From Nitrosopumilus sp. (GTDB lineage Archaea > Thermoproteota > Nitrososphaeria > Nitrososphaerales > Nitrosopumilaceae): a stretch of 64,000 nt of DNA. Position numbers and translations under genes: made by a program. Positions 38,959 to 47,611 of this stretch are shown here, in pieces. Position 1 is the first letter of the stretch; every line of letters begins with the position of its first letter. The notes beneath the pieces are model-generated. The model was given only the letters and a program-made list of their open reading frames with translations. It made no database searches and was not told the DNA's origin. The stretch is taken from contig OZ244650.1 in assembly GCA_965218785.1 (NCBI GenBank), forward strand, positions 192,001 through 256,000, in the 5' to 3' direction.

Positions 38959-39918
38959 GTGGTAGAATTTTTAAACGAATTAAATGACATGGATGCCGTT
39001 TCCCTTGATTTGGTAATAGTGCAAAAATCATTTCCAGCAAAAACCAAGGGTGAAAACTTGATGGTGGTTTTCGATGTAGCAGACAAAACAAAAACCCTCA
39101 AGGCCAGATATTTTGGAACGGCAAATGAATGTACCAAATTTTATAACAGACTTGAGCAAGGCAAGGTTTACCGTATTGTCGGTAAATATAGTGATACATA
39201 TCACAGCATTACTATTAATGTAAATGAGCTGATGTTTGTTACTGATCCTGATTGGAATAAACTAAAACGGGAGATTTCCCCAAATGATGAACAAATTCAA
39301 GAATTAAATAGATACGTCGCCACAGTTACAACCCTTGAATTAAAAATCCTTTTAGAAAAATTATTTGCCAGACCGGATTTGATGAACAAACTTGCCGTAT
39401 GGCCCGCTGCATCATCGATGCATCATGCTTATCCCAATGGATTAATAACACACATTTTAGAAATGCTAAAAATAGCTGATAGTTTGCTGTCAATTTACCC
39501 CAAAGCCAACCGTGATTTGCTGTACTGTGGTTGTATCTTACATGACCTGGGTAAAATCATTGAACTTGATGCAGAGTTTGGAACTGTTTACTCTGATAAG
39601 GGAAAGTTATTAACCCATATTCCAATGGGGTTTTTTCTTGTTGGTGAGATACTTGTAAAGGAGACACAGTGCAGTGATGATTTATCAAACCAGATACTCC
39701 ACATGATATTAAGCCACCATGGTACGCCTACTGACAAGATTCCAGGTATTGTCCGGCCCAAAACATTAGAAGCTGTAATGTTGCACCAGATTGATATGCT
39801 CTCATCTCAAGTTGCCCCCATTCATGATGAAGTTGGTAAAAAGTCTGGCTGGGTTAAAATTGGTGGTGGCGAGTATTATATTTCTGATAATACATTGACA
39901 GAAGGATCTGTTGGATAG
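38959..39918 (+). CDS. YhaM/Cbf1-like OB-fold + HD-domain 3'-5' exonuclease
   Basis: PAASSMHHAYPNGLITH, LHDLGK, ILSHHG, PKTLEAVMLHQID; N-terminal OB-like segment. Confidence 0.85.
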   Translation: MVEFLNELNDMDAVSLDLVIVQKSFPAKTKGENLMVVFDVADKTKTLKARYFGTANECTKFYNRLEQGKVYRIVGKYSDTYHSITINVNELMFVTDPDWNKLKREISPNDEQIQELNRYVATVTTLELKILLEKLFARPDLMNKLAVWPAASSMHHAYPNGLITHILEMLKIADSLLSIYPKANRDLLYCGCILHDLGKIIELDAEFGTVYSDKGKLLTHIPMGFFLVGEILVKETQCSDDLSNQILHMILSHHGTPTDKIPGIVRPKTLEAVMLHQIDMLSSQVAPIHDEVGKKSGWVKIGGGEYYISDNTLTEGSVG

Positions 39919-39949
39919 TTGTTATTTGATATCAAGTCATTGTAATCAT

Positions 39950-39974
39950 TGTGAAGAAAAAACGAAATTCAGAT
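39950..39974 (+). repeat. 25-bp direct repeat, copy 1
   Basis: TGTGAAGAAAAAACGAAATTCAGAT, identical to 41897..41921. Confidence 0.85.
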
Positions 39975-40038
39975 CCTGTAATTCAATTAAAAGATACAAC
40001 TAAAGATGCTTTGATGAGCATATGGTTGTTTGAGATTC

Positions 40039-40518
40039 TTAATTAGAATCTTCTGGTGGGAATAAACACTTATGAATATCCTTATGAATTGGTATCAATA
40101 TTATCAATAATGAATAAAATACAATCTTTGATAACATGTCTGAATTAAGTGTCTCATGCTGATAAATTATTTGAATGAATATGGTTGTAAGATAGCTTAA
40201 GATTAGAAATACAAACTTGTGTTTTATTTGGTGTATGAGTTCTTTTATTCTATTTGGATTACCAATTCTATTTTCTTCCCTTATGCTTACATGAAATACT
40301 TTGAAAATTTGACGTACCAAATTTTCACCACCTATTCCTGTAAAAGTAACTTCAATTTGTAGTGATATATTGTCTTGATTTTTTAGTTTTTTTGGAATCT
40401 TTGGTATATGTGCTTCTAACTCATTATGTCTTTTCATTTCCTTTTTCAATCTACTATGACGTTCTTGTGGAACCACAGCATCGTAAATTACTATATAATG
40501 AGAATCCCTCTTAAACAA
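40039..40518 (-). CDS. Hypothetical protein with two C-terminal TM helices
   Basis: 159-aa ORF; hydrophobic FVFLILSYLTTIFIQII and IVFYSLLIILIPI. Confidence 0.65.
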   Translation of the reverse strand: MFKRDSHYIVIYDAVVPQERHSRLKKEMKRHNELEAHIPKIPKKLKNQDNISLQIEVTFTGIGGENLVRQIFKVFHVSIREENRIGNPNRIKELIHQIKHKFVFLILSYLTTIFIQIIYQHETLNSDMLSKIVFYSLLIILIPIHKDIHKCLFPPEDSN

Positions 40519-40550
40519 TGAACATCAACATACTAGATAGTAATTATATG

Positions 40551-40856
40551 TTAATCTTGAATAAAACCTGAGACTGTTTCCAAATTACCATGAGTGTCAT
40601 TTTTAATTTTTTCAACAATATCTTCTAATACATTCTCATTGTTGATTTTGAATTTCACATACAAATCAATACTGCGTGATCTATCAGAAGGAATTAAAAA
40701 TTGTATATTATTAGCATTAAACTCTTTCAAAGTATATTGTATGATGCTTTGTACAAGCGAACAATTTTTCAAATTATCTACAGCCATTTCATGTTTTCTT
40801 GTTTGCGAATACTTTACAGCTAAAAGTACAGAGAAAGGCCCTTGTAATAAACTCAT
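40551..40856 (-). CDS. Hypothetical protein
   Basis: 101-aa ATG ORF co-oriented 32 bp upstream of 40039..40518. Confidence 0.55.
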   Translation of the reverse strand: MSLLQGPFSVLLAVKYSQTRKHEMAVDNLKNCSLVQSIIQYTLKEFNANNIQFLIPSDRSRSIDLYVKFKINNENVLEDIVEKIKNDTHGNLETVSGFIQD

Positions 40857-41453
40857 AATTTTTCTAAAATGTAATTTACCTCTGTATTTACAATTATCTG
40901 ATTGATTCTAATTTTGTAAAATTGTATCATTTTCACCTTTACTCGAGTTTTGATCATAGAAGTTACACGATTTAAAAGTTTAGGTTTTTGTGAAAAATCT
41001 ATTGATTCTACTCTTCCTGTGCGATTCAACATATGTATATTATAATTTACTAAGTAAAAAAGATTCCTTGTATAATGTCAAGAGGAATATTTAACCTCTA
41101 TCTAGGAATCACCAAATGTAATATATGGAAATTATGTCCTCCTAGTCATAGGTATCCATTTCCATCCATTTTGTATTCTTTTCTCTGATCATATCTGTGG
41201 CTTTTTGTCGGCAAATACCTTCAATGGTGTTTGATAATTGTCCGCGTCAAGTGAGAAATGAACTTTCATTCGTTGTAATATTTCACGTATGTCAGGCAAA
41301 GGAGAATACACGACAACTTCTAACACTCGATCTGATTTTTATCTGTCAAAACTTGTAATCTTGTCCCTGAGTTTACAGAATTTTGAGAGAAAATGAAATG
41401 TCTTTAAGAATTTAATGTAAAATTCTTCTACCTGTCAAAGATCGGGATATAAG

Positions 41454-41621
41454 TTATTTTCTACTAAGACGCCTTTCTTTTGTTTGACGGCTTCTACACT
41501 TTCTACACCATGATTGAACCATTTTGTATCCCTGATTATTTCTAATACCAAATCTTTCTACAACTTGATCCTCACCATGTGCCATCTTCCCACATTCAGG
41601 ACATTTAGCTTCATACAACAT
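41454..41621 (-). CDS. 55-aa zinc-finger microprotein (not in ORF track)
   Basis: MLYEAKCPECGKMAHGEDQVVERFGIRNNQGYKMVQSWCRKCRSRQTKERRLSRK*; two CxxC pairs. Confidence 0.75.
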   Translation of the reverse strand: MLYEAKCPECGKMAHGEDQVVERFGIRNNQGYKMVQSWCRKCRSRQTKERRLSRK

Positions 41622-41689
41622 TGTTAAAATATTATTGACTTTATGATATAAAATCCTTTTGCAAAAGGTTTAGATCGCTATTATTTACC

Positions 41690-41923
41690 ATGTCAAAGAT
41701 CTTGCAATCAAAAAAAGAGTATGAGATAGAACTCTGGATGGGATTTGAAAATAAAATCAAAGAGTGTTGTGTAATGTTCTTTGAATCAGCATGGAGACCA
41801 TCAATAAAGTATGAAATTAAGGAGTATAGTGAAACAATGCATATACTTACTAACAATGAAGGGGTTATTCTATGCCCTGATTGTTTAGTAACTATATGTG
41901 AAGAAAAAACGAAATTCAGATGA
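41690..41923 (+). CDS. Small Cys-containing hypothetical protein
   Basis: 77-aa ATG ORF with ECC and CPDC, divergent from the zinc-finger gene. Confidence 0.5.
   Translation: MSKILQSKKEYEIELWMGFENKIKECCVMFFESAWRPSIKYEIKEYSETMHILTNNEGVILCPDCLVTICEEKTKFR
41897..41921 (+). repeat. 25-bp direct repeat, copy 2
   Basis: Identical to 39950..39974. Confidence 0.85.
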
Positions 41924-42003
41924 TATTAGGAATACCCCATCTAGAAAAAATACAGTTTCCAAGAAAAAAATAAACAAAATCATTAGGAAAAAAAACAAAA
42001 TCT

Positions 42004-42190
42004 ATGACCTATGTTGGAATCGACCTGCATAAGGAATTCTCTAGGTAGAGGCAATGGATAATTATGGTGTATCCTGTTTAATGAAGATTCAAAACACACA
42101 AAATGATACATGCAATGCACTCCCCACCTGCTAATGGATTCAAAATATATCATCGAATCATAATTTGTATGATATTTGAAAATCTTTTCT
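42004..42190 (+). mobile_element. IS110-family transposase N-terminal remnant (pseudogene)
   Basis: MTYVGIDLHKEFS / VEAMDNYG / SKYIIES*FV*Y in shifted frames; GIDLHK and xES..W are DEDD RuvC-like motifs. Confidence 0.78.
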
Positions 42191-42220
42191 TGTCTGTGTG
42201 TTCTAATTTCTAGCAGACAT

Positions 42221-42640
42221 TCAAATGAATCCATCCTTTGCTTTCCTGATCTCTGATGGCAAATCATTAATCCCGCCCATGGATCTATATCCAAATGACT
42301 TTAATCTTACTTTTGATTCTGTACATGCCTTGGTAATACATTGTTCATAAAGCCTGTTGGCTCCTGCCTTGAAAAAAATTACCACATCATATTTTTCTAC
42401 AATTTTTTTGATTTCTGGTACTAATTCTTGGCATCTTTTCTCATCCATTATTCTGTCGTATGGCTGTATTGTTTTTTCGGCAGGAACAAGCCCATGTTCC
42501 GCACTTAGAATGAACATGTCAGTATCGTCTTTACGGTTGTAAACTGCCGTTATTCTTGATGATTTGTATAACCTCCATGCTGGAAGTTCTTCATCTCTTT
42601 TTTTATTCCCACATGAAGTAACGACTGAAATTTTTGTCAT
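42221..42640 (-). CDS. DUF6884-like protein
   Basis: SCGNKK..PAWRLY..ILSAEHGLV..IQPYD pattern; ATG overlaps the glycosylase TGA. Confidence 0.7.
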   Translation of the reverse strand: MTKISVVTSCGNKKRDEELPAWRLYKSSRITAVYNRKDDTDMFILSAEHGLVPAEKTIQPYDRIMDEKRCQELVPEIKKIVEKYDVVIFFKAGANRLYEQCITKACTESKVRLKSFGYRSMGGINDLPSEIRKAKDGFI

Positions 42641-43542
42641 TCTGGCAGTCTTGTATCTATCAGCGTACGTCCTTTTTGGTTTATTTGAATACTAGATGAT
42701 GGAATATTTGCCGTGCAGTATTTTTCCAGCCTGCACTGGTCTCTGACTGGACATGCCGCCCCATCTCTGTATTTCGTGCATCCGAGTCTGCTTAGATTCC
42801 ATAATGCCTCATCAAGTTCTAGTGGATAGTGCTCAGTCTTGTTACAGACATCAACCCAGGCCTGTTTTGCGTATTCTGTCAGCTTTGAGAAATCGTCTTC
42901 AAACGTGCCTGACAGACATCCGGTCATTATCGTTGCACGTGCGGTATGAATGTCTATTGGCATTGGCACTTTTTCCAGGTTTTTGAATCTGATCTTGGCT
43001 TCTTTGTAAAGCATTCTAATCCACAACGAGCGAATTTTTCCCGTTCCTGTTGAACCTGCAAGGTATGGAAAGTCTTTTCCATACTGTGTTTTCATTGCCG
43101 TGACAATCTGATGTGCGTCATAATCAAATCTTGCAAAAAGATTCCTGGGATCTCCGTCAAATAACTCTGCAAATGACTGTGCAATACTCCTCCAAATGCC
43201 AACATCTTTTTTTATTTTTTTACAAAGTTTGTATTTTGTCAGCGCCTCGCCAAGTTCTGCTGTCGTCTTTTTAATGACCTCCTTTGGGAAAAAAACCCAT
43301 CTGGTGTCTTTATCCTCCCACGATCTTCTTGCCGAATCCCACAGGTCGCTTGCAGAACGCTGATAGTCTATTGCTACAGTCATGGTAAGAAACATGATAT
43401 GTTCGTATGATCCAATGTCTATCCCATTTGGAATCTCCGATTCTGGAAGATCAGAACCTGAGAATATCCCGTCTTTTTTATCGTACCAATCCAAAATAAT
43501 ATCGATTACTTTTCTTGCATGCTCGATATTTGTAACTAGCAT
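42637..43542 (-). CDS. Divergent HhH-GPD superfamily DNA glycosylase/lyase with C-terminal four-Cys cluster
   Basis: FPYLAG..GKI (HhH), PIDIHTAR (catalytic Asp), LDEALW, C-x8-C-x5-C-x5-C. Confidence 0.75.
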   Translation of the reverse strand: MLVTNIEHARKVIDIILDWYDKKDGIFSGSDLPESEIPNGIDIGSYEHIMFLTMTVAIDYQRSASDLWDSARRSWEDKDTRWVFFPKEVIKKTTAELGEALTKYKLCKKIKKDVGIWRSIAQSFAELFDGDPRNLFARFDYDAHQIVTAMKTQYGKDFPYLAGSTGTGKIRSLWIRMLYKEAKIRFKNLEKVPMPIDIHTARATIMTGCLSGTFEDDFSKLTEYAKQAWVDVCNKTEHYPLELDEALWNLSRLGCTKYRDGAACPVRDQCRLEKYCTANIPSSSIQINQKGRTLIDTRLPE

Positions 43543-43791
43543 GTACTGGGTTACTCTTTCACATATATCAATATTGTAAGAAAATACCTTTGTGGTTATT
43601 GAGACTCGTGATAAATAATATCATTTACTACAATAACTATATTGGATTATACATAAATATAAAATCTCGATCAAAGAAATGAAATATGATATCTGTACAT
43701 CGTGAAAAGTTTAAGGCATTAGCAAAGCCTTTGAGTAGTTTTATTCCAGAAATTAAAAGGAATTAATATTTCAAATAATCTAAGATTTAAA

Positions 43792-44298
43792 TCAAAATTT
43801 GTTCTGTCCCATTTCTTCTTTTATTGATTGTAATTTTTCATATAATTTTTCTGCTTCGTTTAATGCAGAATTCACATTTAATTTTTTACCCAACCATGTA
43901 AATACCATATCAACACTAAATGAATCTGCTTGGAGATCTTTTCGGTTTATTTCTCTTACATGTCTTTTTTTACTATCAATTCCATAATCATACATATGTT
44001 CTCCCACATCACGCATGATTTTAAGATCAGGAATATTTCTATCGAATTCTTCAATCGCTTCACACATGTATTTTGAAATAGAATCTATTTTTGTTGCAAG
44101 GTTTACCATGTTTCGAAATCGGTATAAAGAAATTATAAAAAATTGTAAATCTATACAATATTTGAATTGAAAAGAATACTCCTCTGAACATGGTTTCTGT
44201 AAGCGATTTTTTTGTAATCTAACTGCACAAATGTATTCTCTGGATAAACTAATTGCTCTTTCCATAGTCGCACCATCAGATGGCTTATCATCCGTCAT
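43792..44298 (-). CDS. Hypothetical protein, putative HEPN-like RNase
   Basis: Helical 168 aa with R-x4-H motif (MRDVGEHMYDY). Confidence 0.55.
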   Translation of the reverse strand: MTDDKPSDGATMERAISLSREYICAVRLQKNRLQKPCSEEYSFQFKYCIDLQFFIISLYRFRNMVNLATKIDSISKYMCEAIEEFDRNIPDLKIMRDVGEHMYDYGIDSKKRHVREINRKDLQADSFSVDMVFTWLGKKLNVNSALNEAEKLYEKLQSIKEEMGQNKF

Positions 44299-44329: not shown

Positions 44330-44728
44330 TTTATTCATTAATCACTTTATTACAATACTATTCAATAGAATTTATGCGTATCCATGTGCGATCCTAATAA
44401 ATATTTCATGCAATATCCGAACATAGAGTATGGTCTACGCTAGAGATGTACTGCAAACCAAAGATGAAATTGGACACGTATCCATTCGGGGCTCACCCCC
44501 AGTACCATTCTTCATCCATTTGTCAGGTAAAATCACAGCTAATCAACGAGGTATAATCCCCAACGCATAAAACGCGTTCATATTCCTAATTATAATGTCT
44601 TCAAATTTATGAACCTGTGTCAACTTTGACATGCGACAAATTCCCTCTTCTTTTAGCATCCAGTATATGACACGCAGCATCTTTGATGCAGTAGCCACTA
44701 CAGTCTTTGATGTACCAACCCATACCAA
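44330..44728 (-). mobile_element. IS110-family transposase C-terminal remnant plus downstream non-coding end
   Basis: GTSKTVVATASKMLRVIYWMLKE is a typical IS110 C-terminal helix; followed by GC-rich hairpins. Confidence 0.72.
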
Positions 44729-46190: not shown

Positions 46191-46265
46191 AGGGCTCGGA
46201 GGGCTTCGATCCCTCGACCTGGCGGTCCGAAGCCGCCCGCACTATCCAGGCTGTGCAACGAGTCC
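46191..46265 (-). tRNA. tRNA-Arg (anticodon TCG)
   Basis: GGACTCG acceptor, GGCGG-CTTCGGA-CCGCC anticodon arm, GAGGG-ATCGAAG-CCCTC T arm; no intron, CCA not encoded. Confidence 0.93.
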
Positions 46266-46633: not shown

Positions 46634-47611
46634 ATGTCACAAATCCGGTTTGCCATTCCCAAAGGAAGCCTAGAGGAGGCCACCTTCAAACTACTAGAAA
46701 GATCCTGGACCAGAGTCAACCGGAAAAGCAGAACTTATCGCGTCTACTTGGATGATCCAAAGATCATAGTCAAGATGCTTCGCCCCCAGGAGATCCCAAC
46801 CCTGGTTGCAGAGGGACTATACGACGTGGGCATCACAGGAAAAGACTGGGTTGGAGAAACCAATGCAGACGTAGAGCCGATCCTGGATCTGGAATATGGC
46901 AAAATCAGACTGGTAATAGCATTCCCAGACAAGTATCGCTACAAAAATCTTGATGAAATGATTGCAGACTATGGCAAAAAGAAAAAAACACTTCGCATAT
47001 CCTCGGAATACCTTATCACCGCATCCAAATTTCTAAAAAACTCAAAATCCTACAAAAAATATTACGGCTCTAAAGATCCGCTGATTGTAACACCATGGGT
47101 TCGACTGGGAACCAACAAAAACGTCCAGATCCACCTCTCATTTGGCGCAACTGAGGCAAAGCCCCCAGAAGATGTGGATGCAATCATGGATGTTACTGAA
47201 ACCGGAACAACTCTAAAGCAGAACAAGCTAAAGATAGTCGATACGGTACTCACCTCCACTGCACACCTGATTGCAAATAAAAAGTCATTAAAGGATCCAA
47301 ACAAGCGCGAGAAAATATTTGACGTTCTAACCCTGATGCGAGGCGCAGTCAACGGCAGAAAATACCTGCACGTCTATCTGAATGTAGAGGAGAAAAACCT
47401 AAAAAAACTTTTAACACAGATGCCCTCCCTGAAAAGACCCACGATAAGCCCGCTTAGCGAACCTGGGTGGTTTGGAGTAAACACGGTCGTCAAAAAGGAT
47501 CAGTTCCACAAACTCATTCCAAAACTAAGAAAGATTGCCCAGGGTCTCGTGGTTCATGAACCGCGGCAGATTCTAGAGCTCGAGGAGATAAAGCGTGACG
47601 AAGAGAATTGA
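46634..47611 (+). CDS. hisG: ATP phosphoribosyltransferase
   Basis: AIPKGSL, LRPQEIP, GITGKD, GATE, DVTETGTTL, PTISPL. Confidence 0.96.
   Translation: MSQIRFAIPKGSLEEATFKLLERSWTRVNRKSRTYRVYLDDPKIIVKMLRPQEIPTLVAEGLYDVGITGKDWVGETNADVEPILDLEYGKIRLVIAFPDKYRYKNLDEMIADYGKKKKTLRISSEYLITASKFLKNSKSYKKYYGSKDPLIVTPWVRLGTNKNVQIHLSFGATEAKPPEDVDAIMDVTETGTTLKQNKLKIVDTVLTSTAHLIANKKSLKDPNKREKIFDVLTLMRGAVNGRKYLHVYLNVEEKNLKKLLTQMPSLKRPTISPLSEPGWFGVNTVVKKDQFHKLIPKLRKIAQGLVVHEPRQILELEEIKRDEEN

Follow-up and report, generated by a model that had tools for sequence, protein, structure and literature searches.

A glycosylase-like protein and its DUF6884 partner in Nitrosopumilus, a candidate mobile base-excision defence module

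A 64,000-nt stretch of Nitrosopumilus sp. DNA (GCA_965218785.1, contig OZ244650.1, positions 192,001-256,000 of the forward strand), here called the window and used for all coordinates below, contains a glycosylase-like protein of 301 amino acids (aa), for short GLY, and its 139-aa DUF6884 partner, for short DUF. We see an evenly balanced case for this pair being a horizontally mobile two-component base-excision defence module in the accessory defence gene pool of archaea and of some bacteria. Because the module moves between genomes and is found in the company of antiviral genes, we take it as a probable new, two-part form of the glycosylase defences against modified virus DNA. Glycosylase immunity against modified phage DNA is a recent discovery and so far a bacterial one (Brig1, Brig3-BapA, Dag1/2). 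If our reading is correct, such immunity extends to archaea, including the abundant marine ammonia oxidisers, and to the candidate phyla radiation and other uncultured lineages, and it gains DUF6884 as a second, obligate-looking component.

The gene pair and its distribution

Both genes lie on the minus strand, GLY at 42637-43542 and DUF at 42221-42640, and the start of the DUF gene overlaps the stop of the GLY gene in an ATGA at 42640-42637. An earlier interpretation made from the DNA letters alone (the sequence-only reading) had combined them with a third minus-strand gene for a HEPN-like protein into a mobile defence cassette. The list of open reading frames (ORFs) gives all three genes in the proposed positions and common orientation, and the overlap was found again in the sequence.

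The same reading had preferred defence over housekeeping repair, and GLY indeed is not inherited vertically in all Nitrosopumilaceae. Its distribution is patchy: it occurs in three of 151 genomes of the family and in none of nine other genomes of the same genus. One genome has three GLY copies that are 57-59% identical to GLY of the window. In this genome (G001, a metagenome-assembled genome labelled Cenarchaeum), the three diverged pairs are found on C1 near 1112886 (L011), 1149185 (L013) and 1443802 (L012), each in a different defence-type neighbourhood.

The DUF gene directly follows GLY in all four other Nitrosopumilaceae loci. With a jackhmmer profile, it was also found beside GLY in L014, on the short contig L015, in L019 (Ignavibacteria) and in L058 (Methanosarcinales), where it lies upstream of a GLY without the cysteine tail described below. 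For GLY of the window's type, DUF is adjacent in nine of nine genome loci. Pfam detects DUF6884 in five of the 151 genomes, with copy numbers of 1, 3 and 1 in exactly the three genomes that have GLY; the remaining two carry a fused form (G110) and one weak match, respectively.

A metagenome scan yielded 337 GLY relatives, from which 80 loci were kept, 78 of them with a complete GLY ORF. In these 78 loci, DUF is adjacent downstream (43), part of one ORF with GLY (3), adjacent upstream (1) or nearby (3); 12 loci end too soon to judge and 16 are without DUF despite room. DUF is thus adjacent or fused in 47 of the 66 metagenome loci with room to judge. The conserved linkage of glycosylase and DUF6884 expected by the sequence-only reading hence holds, and the pair is translationally coupled and sometimes fused. 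Carriage of the pair by viruses was considered and rejected, as viral contigs contained a single distant GLY relative and the phage collection contained none. Plasmids gave three distant haloarchaeal matches (23-28% identity) sited among nucleases and transposases; no DUF6884 was annotated beside the two plasmid relatives inspected, in a gene table that is itself incomplete.

Fold, catalytic residues and cysteine loop of GLY

At the level of sequence, GLY weakly resembles a single known family. Pfam AGOG (PF09171) matches residues 187-251 only, with an E value of 2.9e-5 and 24 bits, below the cut-off of 26.1. The AGOG equivalog model of NCBIfam, PRK13280, reaches 20.9 bits against a cut-off of 383, and a sequence search of the PDB returned AGOG at E 0.17, the rest being chance matches. 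Pfam gave no PF00730 (HhH-GPD) match at E<=0.1, and no PADLOC model matches GLY. There was no Pfam match to Q_salvage (PF10343) either, and hhalign against four Q_salvage proteins gave a probability of 0.6%. An Atlas search with the stored homologue P0009 returned only unnamed, AGOG-like, Fe-S-loop and Q_salvage clusters.

An AlphaFold model based on 20 relatives (predicted local distance difference test, pLDDT, 91.4; predicted template modelling score, pTM, 0.89) shows the two-lobe helical fold with a central helix-hairpin-helix (HhH) that defines the HhH-GPD superfamily. Foldseek placed Qng1/DUF2419 first (E 2.7e-5, TM 0.57-0.59), followed by AGOG, EndoIII, NTHL1 and MutY. In VIA-align comparisons, Qng1 scored Z 19.1 (248 residues aligned, root-mean-square deviation (rmsd) 3.6), EndoIII Z 15.9 (212 residues, rmsd 3.1), MutY Z 14.8 (225 residues, rmsd 3.3), the thermostable T:G glycosylase 1kea Z 14.1 and AGOG Z 13.3 (230 residues, rmsd 3.7). 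A Z of at least 8 was obtained for 186 of 777 compared chains, and the best 50 of these 186 all are Qng1/DUF2419, EndoIII, NTHL1, MutY/MUTYH, AGOG or thymine-DNA glycosylase.

The catalytic residues of the superfamily are present. Asp D197 and the HhH lysine K169 are invariant in alignments of 20 and of 23 relatives, as is H199, and HMMER aligns D197 with residue 172 of Pa-AGOG. The PIDIH (PxDxH) motif noticed by the sequence-only reading indeed occupies residues 195-199, and its C-x8-C-x5-C-x5-C motif corresponds to cysteines 255, 264, 270 and 276. All four cysteines are kept in 22 of 23 long-type relatives and each is at least 90% conserved in the long clade, with a first spacer of x7-x10 and fixed x5/x5 spacers. 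They take the position of the C-terminal loop of EndoIII and MutY, with a spacing of C-x(7-10)-C-x5-C-x5-C instead of C-x6-C-x2-C-x5-C; the EndoIII and MutY alignments run through GLY residues 283-292 and therefore cover the cysteine region. What had been described as a divergent iron-sulfur (Fe-S) HhH DNA glycosylase thus keeps its HhH fold in the model and its EndoIII-like four-cysteine loop, a probable Fe-S site, but the nearest fold is Qng1 rather than EndoIII.

In the helix that follows the active site, D244 is invariant and W248 at least 90% conserved among the 23 long-type relatives. HMMER aligns these two residues with D218 and W222 of AGOG, which we take to read the guanine edge. For Qng1, the available text of PMC9881137 names the HhH Asp and Lys, both catalytic, as the only two residues common to Qng1 and DNA glycosylases; it gives D231 and K199 as the residues that Qng1 employs, with D298 and W302 recognising the 7-deazaguanine ring. 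The modelled fold, the catalytic residues and the cysteine loop together argue for a DNA glycosylase.

The DUF6884 partner

The assignment of the 139-aa protein to DUF6884 was confirmed by Pfam (PF21818, E 7.2e-13, 49.3 bits against a cut-off of 30). Among eight partners, C10, K13, K14, I44, L45, S46, A47 and G50 are invariant. These residues include CxxxK (C10-x3-K14) and LSAxxG (L45-S46-A47-x-x-G50), which are the DUF6884 motifs in the accessible part of PMC11701544. There, the family is described as YaaA-like, DNA-binding and probably base-flipping; pull-downs on abasic and RNA-base lesions recovered its member YfjM, and a role in oxidative stress is given for its relative YaaA. DUF6884 is widespread, and in the literature examined DpdC is the only enzymatic activity reported for the family. 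Its placement differs between sources, with one preprint putting DpdC in DUF6884 and another paper putting it under DUF328/YaaA. According to the part of PMC10164549 at hand, DpdC turns preQ0-DNA into ADG-DNA, independently of DpdA and DpdB.

DUF itself is no full-length match to DpdC. Its hit to the PADLOC DpdC models (E 9.4e-5) is partial and covers residues 14-64 only, about 50 residues of models with about 312-319 positions, and the island contains no TGT-like or ParB-like gene. The best PADLOC match is PDC-M57A, with E 1.4e-12 over residues 1-82.

Since DpdC, a DUF6884 protein according to what is accessible of the preprint, matures a 7-deazaguanine mark in DNA, and since the pair often adjoins restriction components, the pair might be thought to install or mature a Dpd-like mark on host DNA and so protect it from the linked restriction. 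We hold such self-modification to be distinctly unlikely. Apart from a weak QueC/QatC-like match in L129, neither TGT/DpdA nor genes of the preQ0 pathway turned up next to the pair, and a self-mark would be hazardous beside the type IV restriction neighbours (GmrSD, Mrr_cat/PDC-S02, mREase_IV, McrB-like) described below. Furthermore, we know of no HhH enzymes that exchange bases, which also counts against this explanation.

DUF6884 domains of the window's subtype also occur fused to DUF7662 (PF24698), PF26468 or Mrr_N (proteins P0272-P0278). DUF7662 in turn heads a 949-aa McrB-like AAA_5 protein beside the pair in L099 (L099:2184-5033). These fusions and the L099 protein hint at a shared toolkit for modified-DNA restriction. 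Seen together, the fusions with GLY, Mrr_N and DUF7662 suggest that DUF6884 serves restriction systems as a recurring building block by which modified bases are read or edited. Another fusion is found in G110, a genome of the same genus in which no GLY was found: at L180:5188-6327, a DUF6884 domain very like that of the window is joined to a C-terminal domain of about 240 aa and adjoins two DDE transposase genes. These 240 aa gave no Pfam match and no meaningful PDB match, and a GIY-YIG-like nuclease, considered for this part, was dropped as unsupported.

Genomic neighbourhoods

PADLOC was run on 42 of the 89 genome-locus proteins (pair genes excluded) and on proteins from 21 metagenome loci; a Pfam scan covered the larger neighbours in 36 metagenome loci. 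In six of seven genome loci, PADLOC matches at E<=1e-6 occur within about 5 kb of the pair, and about 15 of the 36 metagenome loci have restriction-modification (RM) or other defence neighbours, counts that stand without a background control. The pair hence recurs beside restriction and other defence genes, as the sequence-only reading had supposed. Judged by this gene context, it behaves like a defence-island module. For comparison, about 45% of Dag homologues have defence or mobile markers within 20 kb, while the figure for housekeeping glycosylases is 3.1%, in the available text of bioRxiv 10.1101/2025.10.29.685425.

The neighbours vary from locus to locus. Among the genome loci, L010 has an LlaMI-type restriction endonuclease, a C5 methylase (about 3 kb away), a NucC-like/DUF6602 nuclease and a Schlafen-AlbA_2 protein, L011 a DarG-like protein and DDE transposases, L012 a type III RM system, a type IV restriction endonuclease-like HNH/Mrr_N protein and AbiEi/AbiEii, and L013 an Old/AriA-type ATPase-TOPRIM protein. 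An Mrr_cat protein lies immediately downstream of the pair in L019 (PDC-S02, E 2e-133); L058 has no recognised defence neighbour. In the metagenomes, type I RM (L106, L116) and IIG RM (L128, L151) were found, as well as GmrSD/HEC-06 beside the fused pair in L122, McrB-like AAA_5 proteins (L099, L148), BrxA with AbiU/AIPR (L167), DrmD with HerA (L127), PDC-S19 in the partly housekeeping neighbourhood of L162, a CARF protein (L118) and a QatC-like protein (L129). Further metagenome loci have integrases, transposases or phage genes nearby. The type IV restriction neighbours agree with a system directed at modified DNA, as do the proteins in which the partner domain is joined to domains associated with type IV restriction. 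The QatC-like protein of L129 (L129:8503-9918) has 471 aa, part of a QueC domain and a weak match to QatC (E 2.9e-10), and lies about 3 kb from a GLY that has no partner; it is another 7-deazapurine-related defence component in a GLY neighbourhood.

The methylase in L010 brings up RM-associated repair of deamination mismatches, in which GLY would act as a Mig/Vsr analogue and correct T:G or U:G at sites methylated by a linked methyltransferase. Fe-S HhH mismatch glycosylases accompany an archaeal RM system, L010 combines its C5 cytosine methylase with a restriction enzyme, and the T:G glycosylase 1kea is among the fold matches. A C5 methylase is nevertheless present in only one of seven flanked genome loci, the others having N6/N4 methylases or none, and the window's island is without one. 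The pocket helix, too, is more like that of the guanine-reading AGOG and Qng1 than that of Mig or MutY. We thus consider this explanation very unlikely.

Accessory base-excision repair deserves more attention, although we find it doubtful as well. Here, GLY would, like AGOG, remove oxidised or otherwise damaged guanine from the cell's own DNA, DUF would bind or process the abasic product, and the pair would merely ride along in variable regions. In agreement with this, the only family matched at sequence level is AGOG, an 8-oxoguanine glycosylase, some loci lie among housekeeping genes, and some partner variants match the YaaA family (L123, L140); the lesion binding of YfjM and the oxidative-stress role of YaaA, as far as the source cited above goes, point the same way. 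Repair functions would, however, hardly be expected from a gene that is found in three of 151 genomes and absent from the nine same-genus genomes, nor from one with three diverged copies in a single genome, and the window's genome has two canonical PF00730 HhH-GPD genes elsewhere. The recurrent siting beside RM, type IV and abortive-infection genes and the partner-domain proteins that include Mrr_N or DUF7662 likewise speak against repair.

The HEPN-like gene and the borders of the island

The gene for the HEPN-like protein (168 aa, 43792-44298, minus strand) lies 249 bp upstream of GLY, in line with the distance of about 250 bp given in the sequence-only reading, and contains the single R-x4-H (RDVGEH, residues 96-101) that this reading reported. 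As a part of the cassette, it did not stand up: it is absent from all four other Nitrosopumilaceae pair loci and from L014, which is 92% identical to the window. The family itself occurs in three of 151 Nitrosopumilaceae genomes, and in the other two, which have no GLY, the gene is alone in variable DNA. As the gene is missing from other pair loci and present in genomes without the pair, it is independent of the pair. A word-indexed search found one close relative and an exhaustive HMMER search 288 representatives at E<=1e-3. Across 39 aligned members, Q29, R32, D50 and H101 are invariant and R96, E100 and Y105 are at least 90% conserved, so that the R-x4-6-H of HEPN proteins is present as R-[ND]-x-x-E-H; Pfam gave no match in any of the 39, HEPN families included. 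The model (pLDDT 94.7) is a helical bundle for which Foldseek returned nothing at E<=0.001, the best HEPN toxin being the weak match 8yuf_B (E 0.6, probability 0.72), and a wide VIA search gave only generic helical bundles (Z<=11.1). A stand-alone HEPN-type gene that shares a variable hotspot with the pair by chance is a plausible description from gene content and conserved motif. In these two genomes (L096:201-1199 and L097:63-668), the homologues adjoin ORFs that, on visual inspection alone, resemble a portal-like protein and a C-terminal tyrosine recombinase fragment.

Between the HEPN-like gene and GLY lies an AT-rich spacer (43543-43791, minus strand, GC 0.27-0.35), which probably holds a promoter of GLY's own. 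Similarity to L014 stops within it, at 43579. L014 (about 92% nucleotide identity) contains window positions 41929-43579, i.e., the pair and most of the left insertion sequence relic, followed by the HD/OB gene described below; it is without 39946-41928 and without everything upstream of 43579, where it has instead a PD-T4-4_A/AAA_15 ATPase and a type II methylase.

The IS110 debris reported on both sides of the cassette is real, as shown by blastn against IS110 copies of the same genome. The left relic (41889-42175, plus strand) is a 5' end with N-terminal codons and matches the same end of the degraded copy L003 with 82.8% identity across 296 nt. The right relic (44366-44716, minus strand) is a 3' end with the last approximately 25 codons and matches the corresponding end of L001, the genome's near-full IS110 copy, with 92.6% identity across 353 nt; its 61-aa ORF matches NCBIfam transpos_IS110 at E 0.073. 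The relics are oppositely oriented and are not halves of one element, and while the left one is mostly present in L014 too, the right one is strain-specific. Mobilisation of the cassette by these relics is unsupported. A composite transposon was likewise rejected, given opposite orientations, different element parts and only the left relic in common with L014.

Conserved DNA limits the island at an HD/OB gene (38959-39918) and at a tRNA-Arg(tcg) gene (46191-46265, minus strand, found with ARAGORN), the right border of the variable region, beyond which the housekeeping his genes start at 46634. GC content over the pair is near the flanking housekeeping level (0.37-0.42) and falls to 0.27-0.33 on either side. 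The HD/OB gene codes for a 319-aa protein with HD and OB-fold domains that is probably housekeeping. Pfam gives it a weak Cas3_HD match (E 1.1e-4), and its L014 homologue, which there directly abuts the pair with its IS relic, matches PADLOC Cas3 at E 4.8e-8. Next to this gene, a strain-specific insertion of 1.95 kb (39946-41928, unstranded; absent from L014) lies outside the module. It is flanked by a perfect 25-nt direct repeat (repeat family D1) at 39950-39974 and 41897-41921, the right copy of which falls within the IS110 5' relic, and carries four small ORFs, among them one for a Zn-ribbon protein (phrog_34160, E 6e-11) and one for a 159-aa membrane-like protein; no integrase was seen in it (GC 0.27-0.33). 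Its make-up suggests a small integrated element or cassette. Its 101-aa ORF (40551-40856) has a homologue at L013:2064-2369 (37% identity, E 2.5e-13), about 6 kb from a pair copy of G001.

Short bacterial relatives of GLY

Gut Bacilli and Clostridia contain short relatives of GLY with about 250 aa and 33% identity. These proteins have neither the cysteine tail nor DUF6884, and the jackhmmer profile found DUF beside GLY in none of about 70 short-type bacterial loci. Short relatives are fused to Q_salvage/Qng1 in three loci (L022, L029, L078) and adjacent to it in four (L020, L025, L040, L041). Fusions to GNAT or methyltransferase domains also occur, as do tandem paralogues in some loci, and neighbours include NTPase_I-T, HD, NUDIX, HAD and uracil-DNA-glycosylase (UDG)-like genes. 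The short branch may hence represent an undescribed step in modified-purine salvage.

Might the long proteins then act in nucleotide or nucleoside salvage too, with GLY freeing a 7-deazapurine base from a free nucleotide and DUF acting on the released compound? The nearest solved fold, Qng1, the Q_salvage fusions and adjacencies of the short relatives, and their position among NTPase_I-T, HD, NUDIX and UDG-like genes would all agree with it. The long clade, on the other hand, has an EndoIII-type four-cysteine loop and the HhH Lys, typical of DNA-binding glycosylases, and it lies next to defence genes that target DNA. The accessible sections of PMC11701544 present the partner family as DNA-binding and base-flipping, and the occurrence of the long clade is more scattered than a core salvage route would allow. 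For the long type, we thus regard salvage as highly improbable. The relation between both types suggests that the GLY family may have begun in nucleotide-level handling of modified purines and that the long cysteine branch would later have gained its DNA-directed features and DUF6884.

Discussion

Our analyses describe a coupled, patchily distributed and defence-associated gene pair. With this, the mobile system against modified bases proposed by the sequence-only reading survives as a candidate in its two-gene core but loses its HEPN effector. What the pair would act on can be narrowed by analogy. Modified guanines, e.g., 7-deazaguanines, are possibly its substrate and the leading candidate, because the nearest fold, Qng1, and the partner family's DpdC both act on 7-deazaguanines and because the pocket helix is AGOG-like.

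We may thus speculate on a mechanism. GLY would bind DNA via its HhH motif and the EndoIII-like four-cysteine loop and flip a base into its Qng1/AGOG-like pocket. There, it would cut the N-glycosidic bond with D197, assisted by K169, and a lyase step could follow. DUF might be a second base-flipping protein and may convert a hypermodified base into a form that GLY can excise, as known from DpdC and BapA. Alternatively, DUF could read the modified base, or the product left abasic, and guide or finish the attack. Replication of the modified viral DNA would then be blocked by closely spaced abasic sites and nicks, and unmodified host DNA would be spared. In its most specific form, the proposal is a two-enzyme archaeal restriction of 7-deazaguanine viral DNA, in which DUF flips and trims the base, for example by DpdC-like nitrile or amidine hydrolysis, and the Fe-S glycosylase excises the 7-deazaguanine. 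This specific version we regard as rather unlikely. Were it true, it would provide a first general function for DUF6884 and show the queuosine-salvage fold recruited into DNA-level immunity. The defence reading as a whole would hint that viruses of Nitrosopumilaceae carry modified guanines.

Several observations weigh against a defence module of this kind. The sequence tie of GLY to any glycosylase family is weak, with AGOG below threshold and a null result for the Q_salvage profile, and the likeness of D244/W248 to D298/W302 of Qng1 and D184/W188 of Dag1 consists of the D-x3-W spacing only. The chemistry of DpdC is not transferable to DUF, as this is a minimal domain of 139 aa that matches the DpdC models weakly. 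GLY can also stand alone, since 16 of 66 metagenome loci with room for it have no DUF6884, and the viral and phage sequences searched hold next to no relatives of it. The metagenome loci for PADLOC were chosen after the Pfam results, and the defence-neighbour counts carry no background rate. A sizeable share of loci lies among housekeeping genes (L114, L119, L160, part of L162), and in the window itself no recognised defence gene is found beside the pair, bar the unproven HEPN-like gene. Finally, the Qng1 fusions and nucleotide-hygiene neighbours of the short relatives point to a nucleotide-level ancestral function, not to an attack on DNA.

Comparison with known systems

No description of the GLY-DUF6884 pair or of PDC-M57 was found in the searchable literature, which does not extend to the supplementary family lists of the Dag study. 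PDC-M57, a PADLOC candidate system, relates to the pair by its component A, the best PADLOC match of DUF, whereas GLY matches no PADLOC model.

AGOG (PF09171; PDB 1XQO), the archaeal 8-oxoguanine DNA glycosylase, is the sole family with a sequence-level match to GLY, and this match covers the region of the catalytic Asp and the following D-x3-W helix. In contrast, its score is below threshold and its fold match (Z 13.3) weaker than that of Qng1 or EndoIII. To our knowledge, AGOG has no Fe-S loop, and no report of an AGOG with a DUF6884 partner was found in the literature examined. Qng1 (PDB 7U07), the DUF2419 queuosine-5'-phosphate N-glycosylase, is the best structural match and has the HhH Lys and Asp in common with GLY; as far as the text of PMC9881137 is available, it acts on a 7-deazaguanine N-glycoside. 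No sequence or profile similarity was found between the two, however, and Qng1 lacks a cysteine cluster, encloses a free nucleotide and employs its C-terminal carboxylate. In the place of this carboxylate, GLY has a 45-residue cysteine loop and a beta-hairpin tail.

For the partner, the closest parallel is DpdC of the Dpd 7-deazaguanine RM system, which the preprint, in its accessible part, assigns to the same Pfam family and which acts on a base within duplex DNA, but neither DpdA nor DpdB is found near the pair.

Among glycosylases with a defence function, Brig1 reportedly belongs to another, uracil-DNA-glycosylase-like superfamily. Brig3 works with BapA, a base-modifying protein from the same operon that widens the range of the glycosylase, according to the available text of bioRxiv 10.64898/2026.02.25.707755. 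The pair would resemble it in logic, as a glycosylase that excises a modified viral base and an operon partner that alters the base for more substrate. In the text as far as available, BapA is a glucosyl hydrolase and unrelated to DUF6884, and the Brig targets are 5-hydroxymethylcytosine derivatives. The HhH glycosylases Dag1 and Dag2 defend against 7-deazaguanine phages with a Lys/Asp pair and a D184-x3-W188 motif, D184 and W188 being essential in Dag1 (bioRxiv 10.1101/2025.10.29.685425, in the part that is accessible). Dag proteins are single-gene systems of Vibrio integrons, and the accessible part of this preprint mentions neither an Fe-S loop nor a DUF6884 partner. GLY can be set beside them by description only, not by sequence, and the Dag family lists may already include it. 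By this description, taken from the available preprint text, Dag1 and Dag2 share with GLY an HhH fold missed by sequence searches, the Lys/Asp pair and a D-x3-W element, together with a patchy, mobile distribution in defence loci and the guanine-type pocket that is suggested for GLY.

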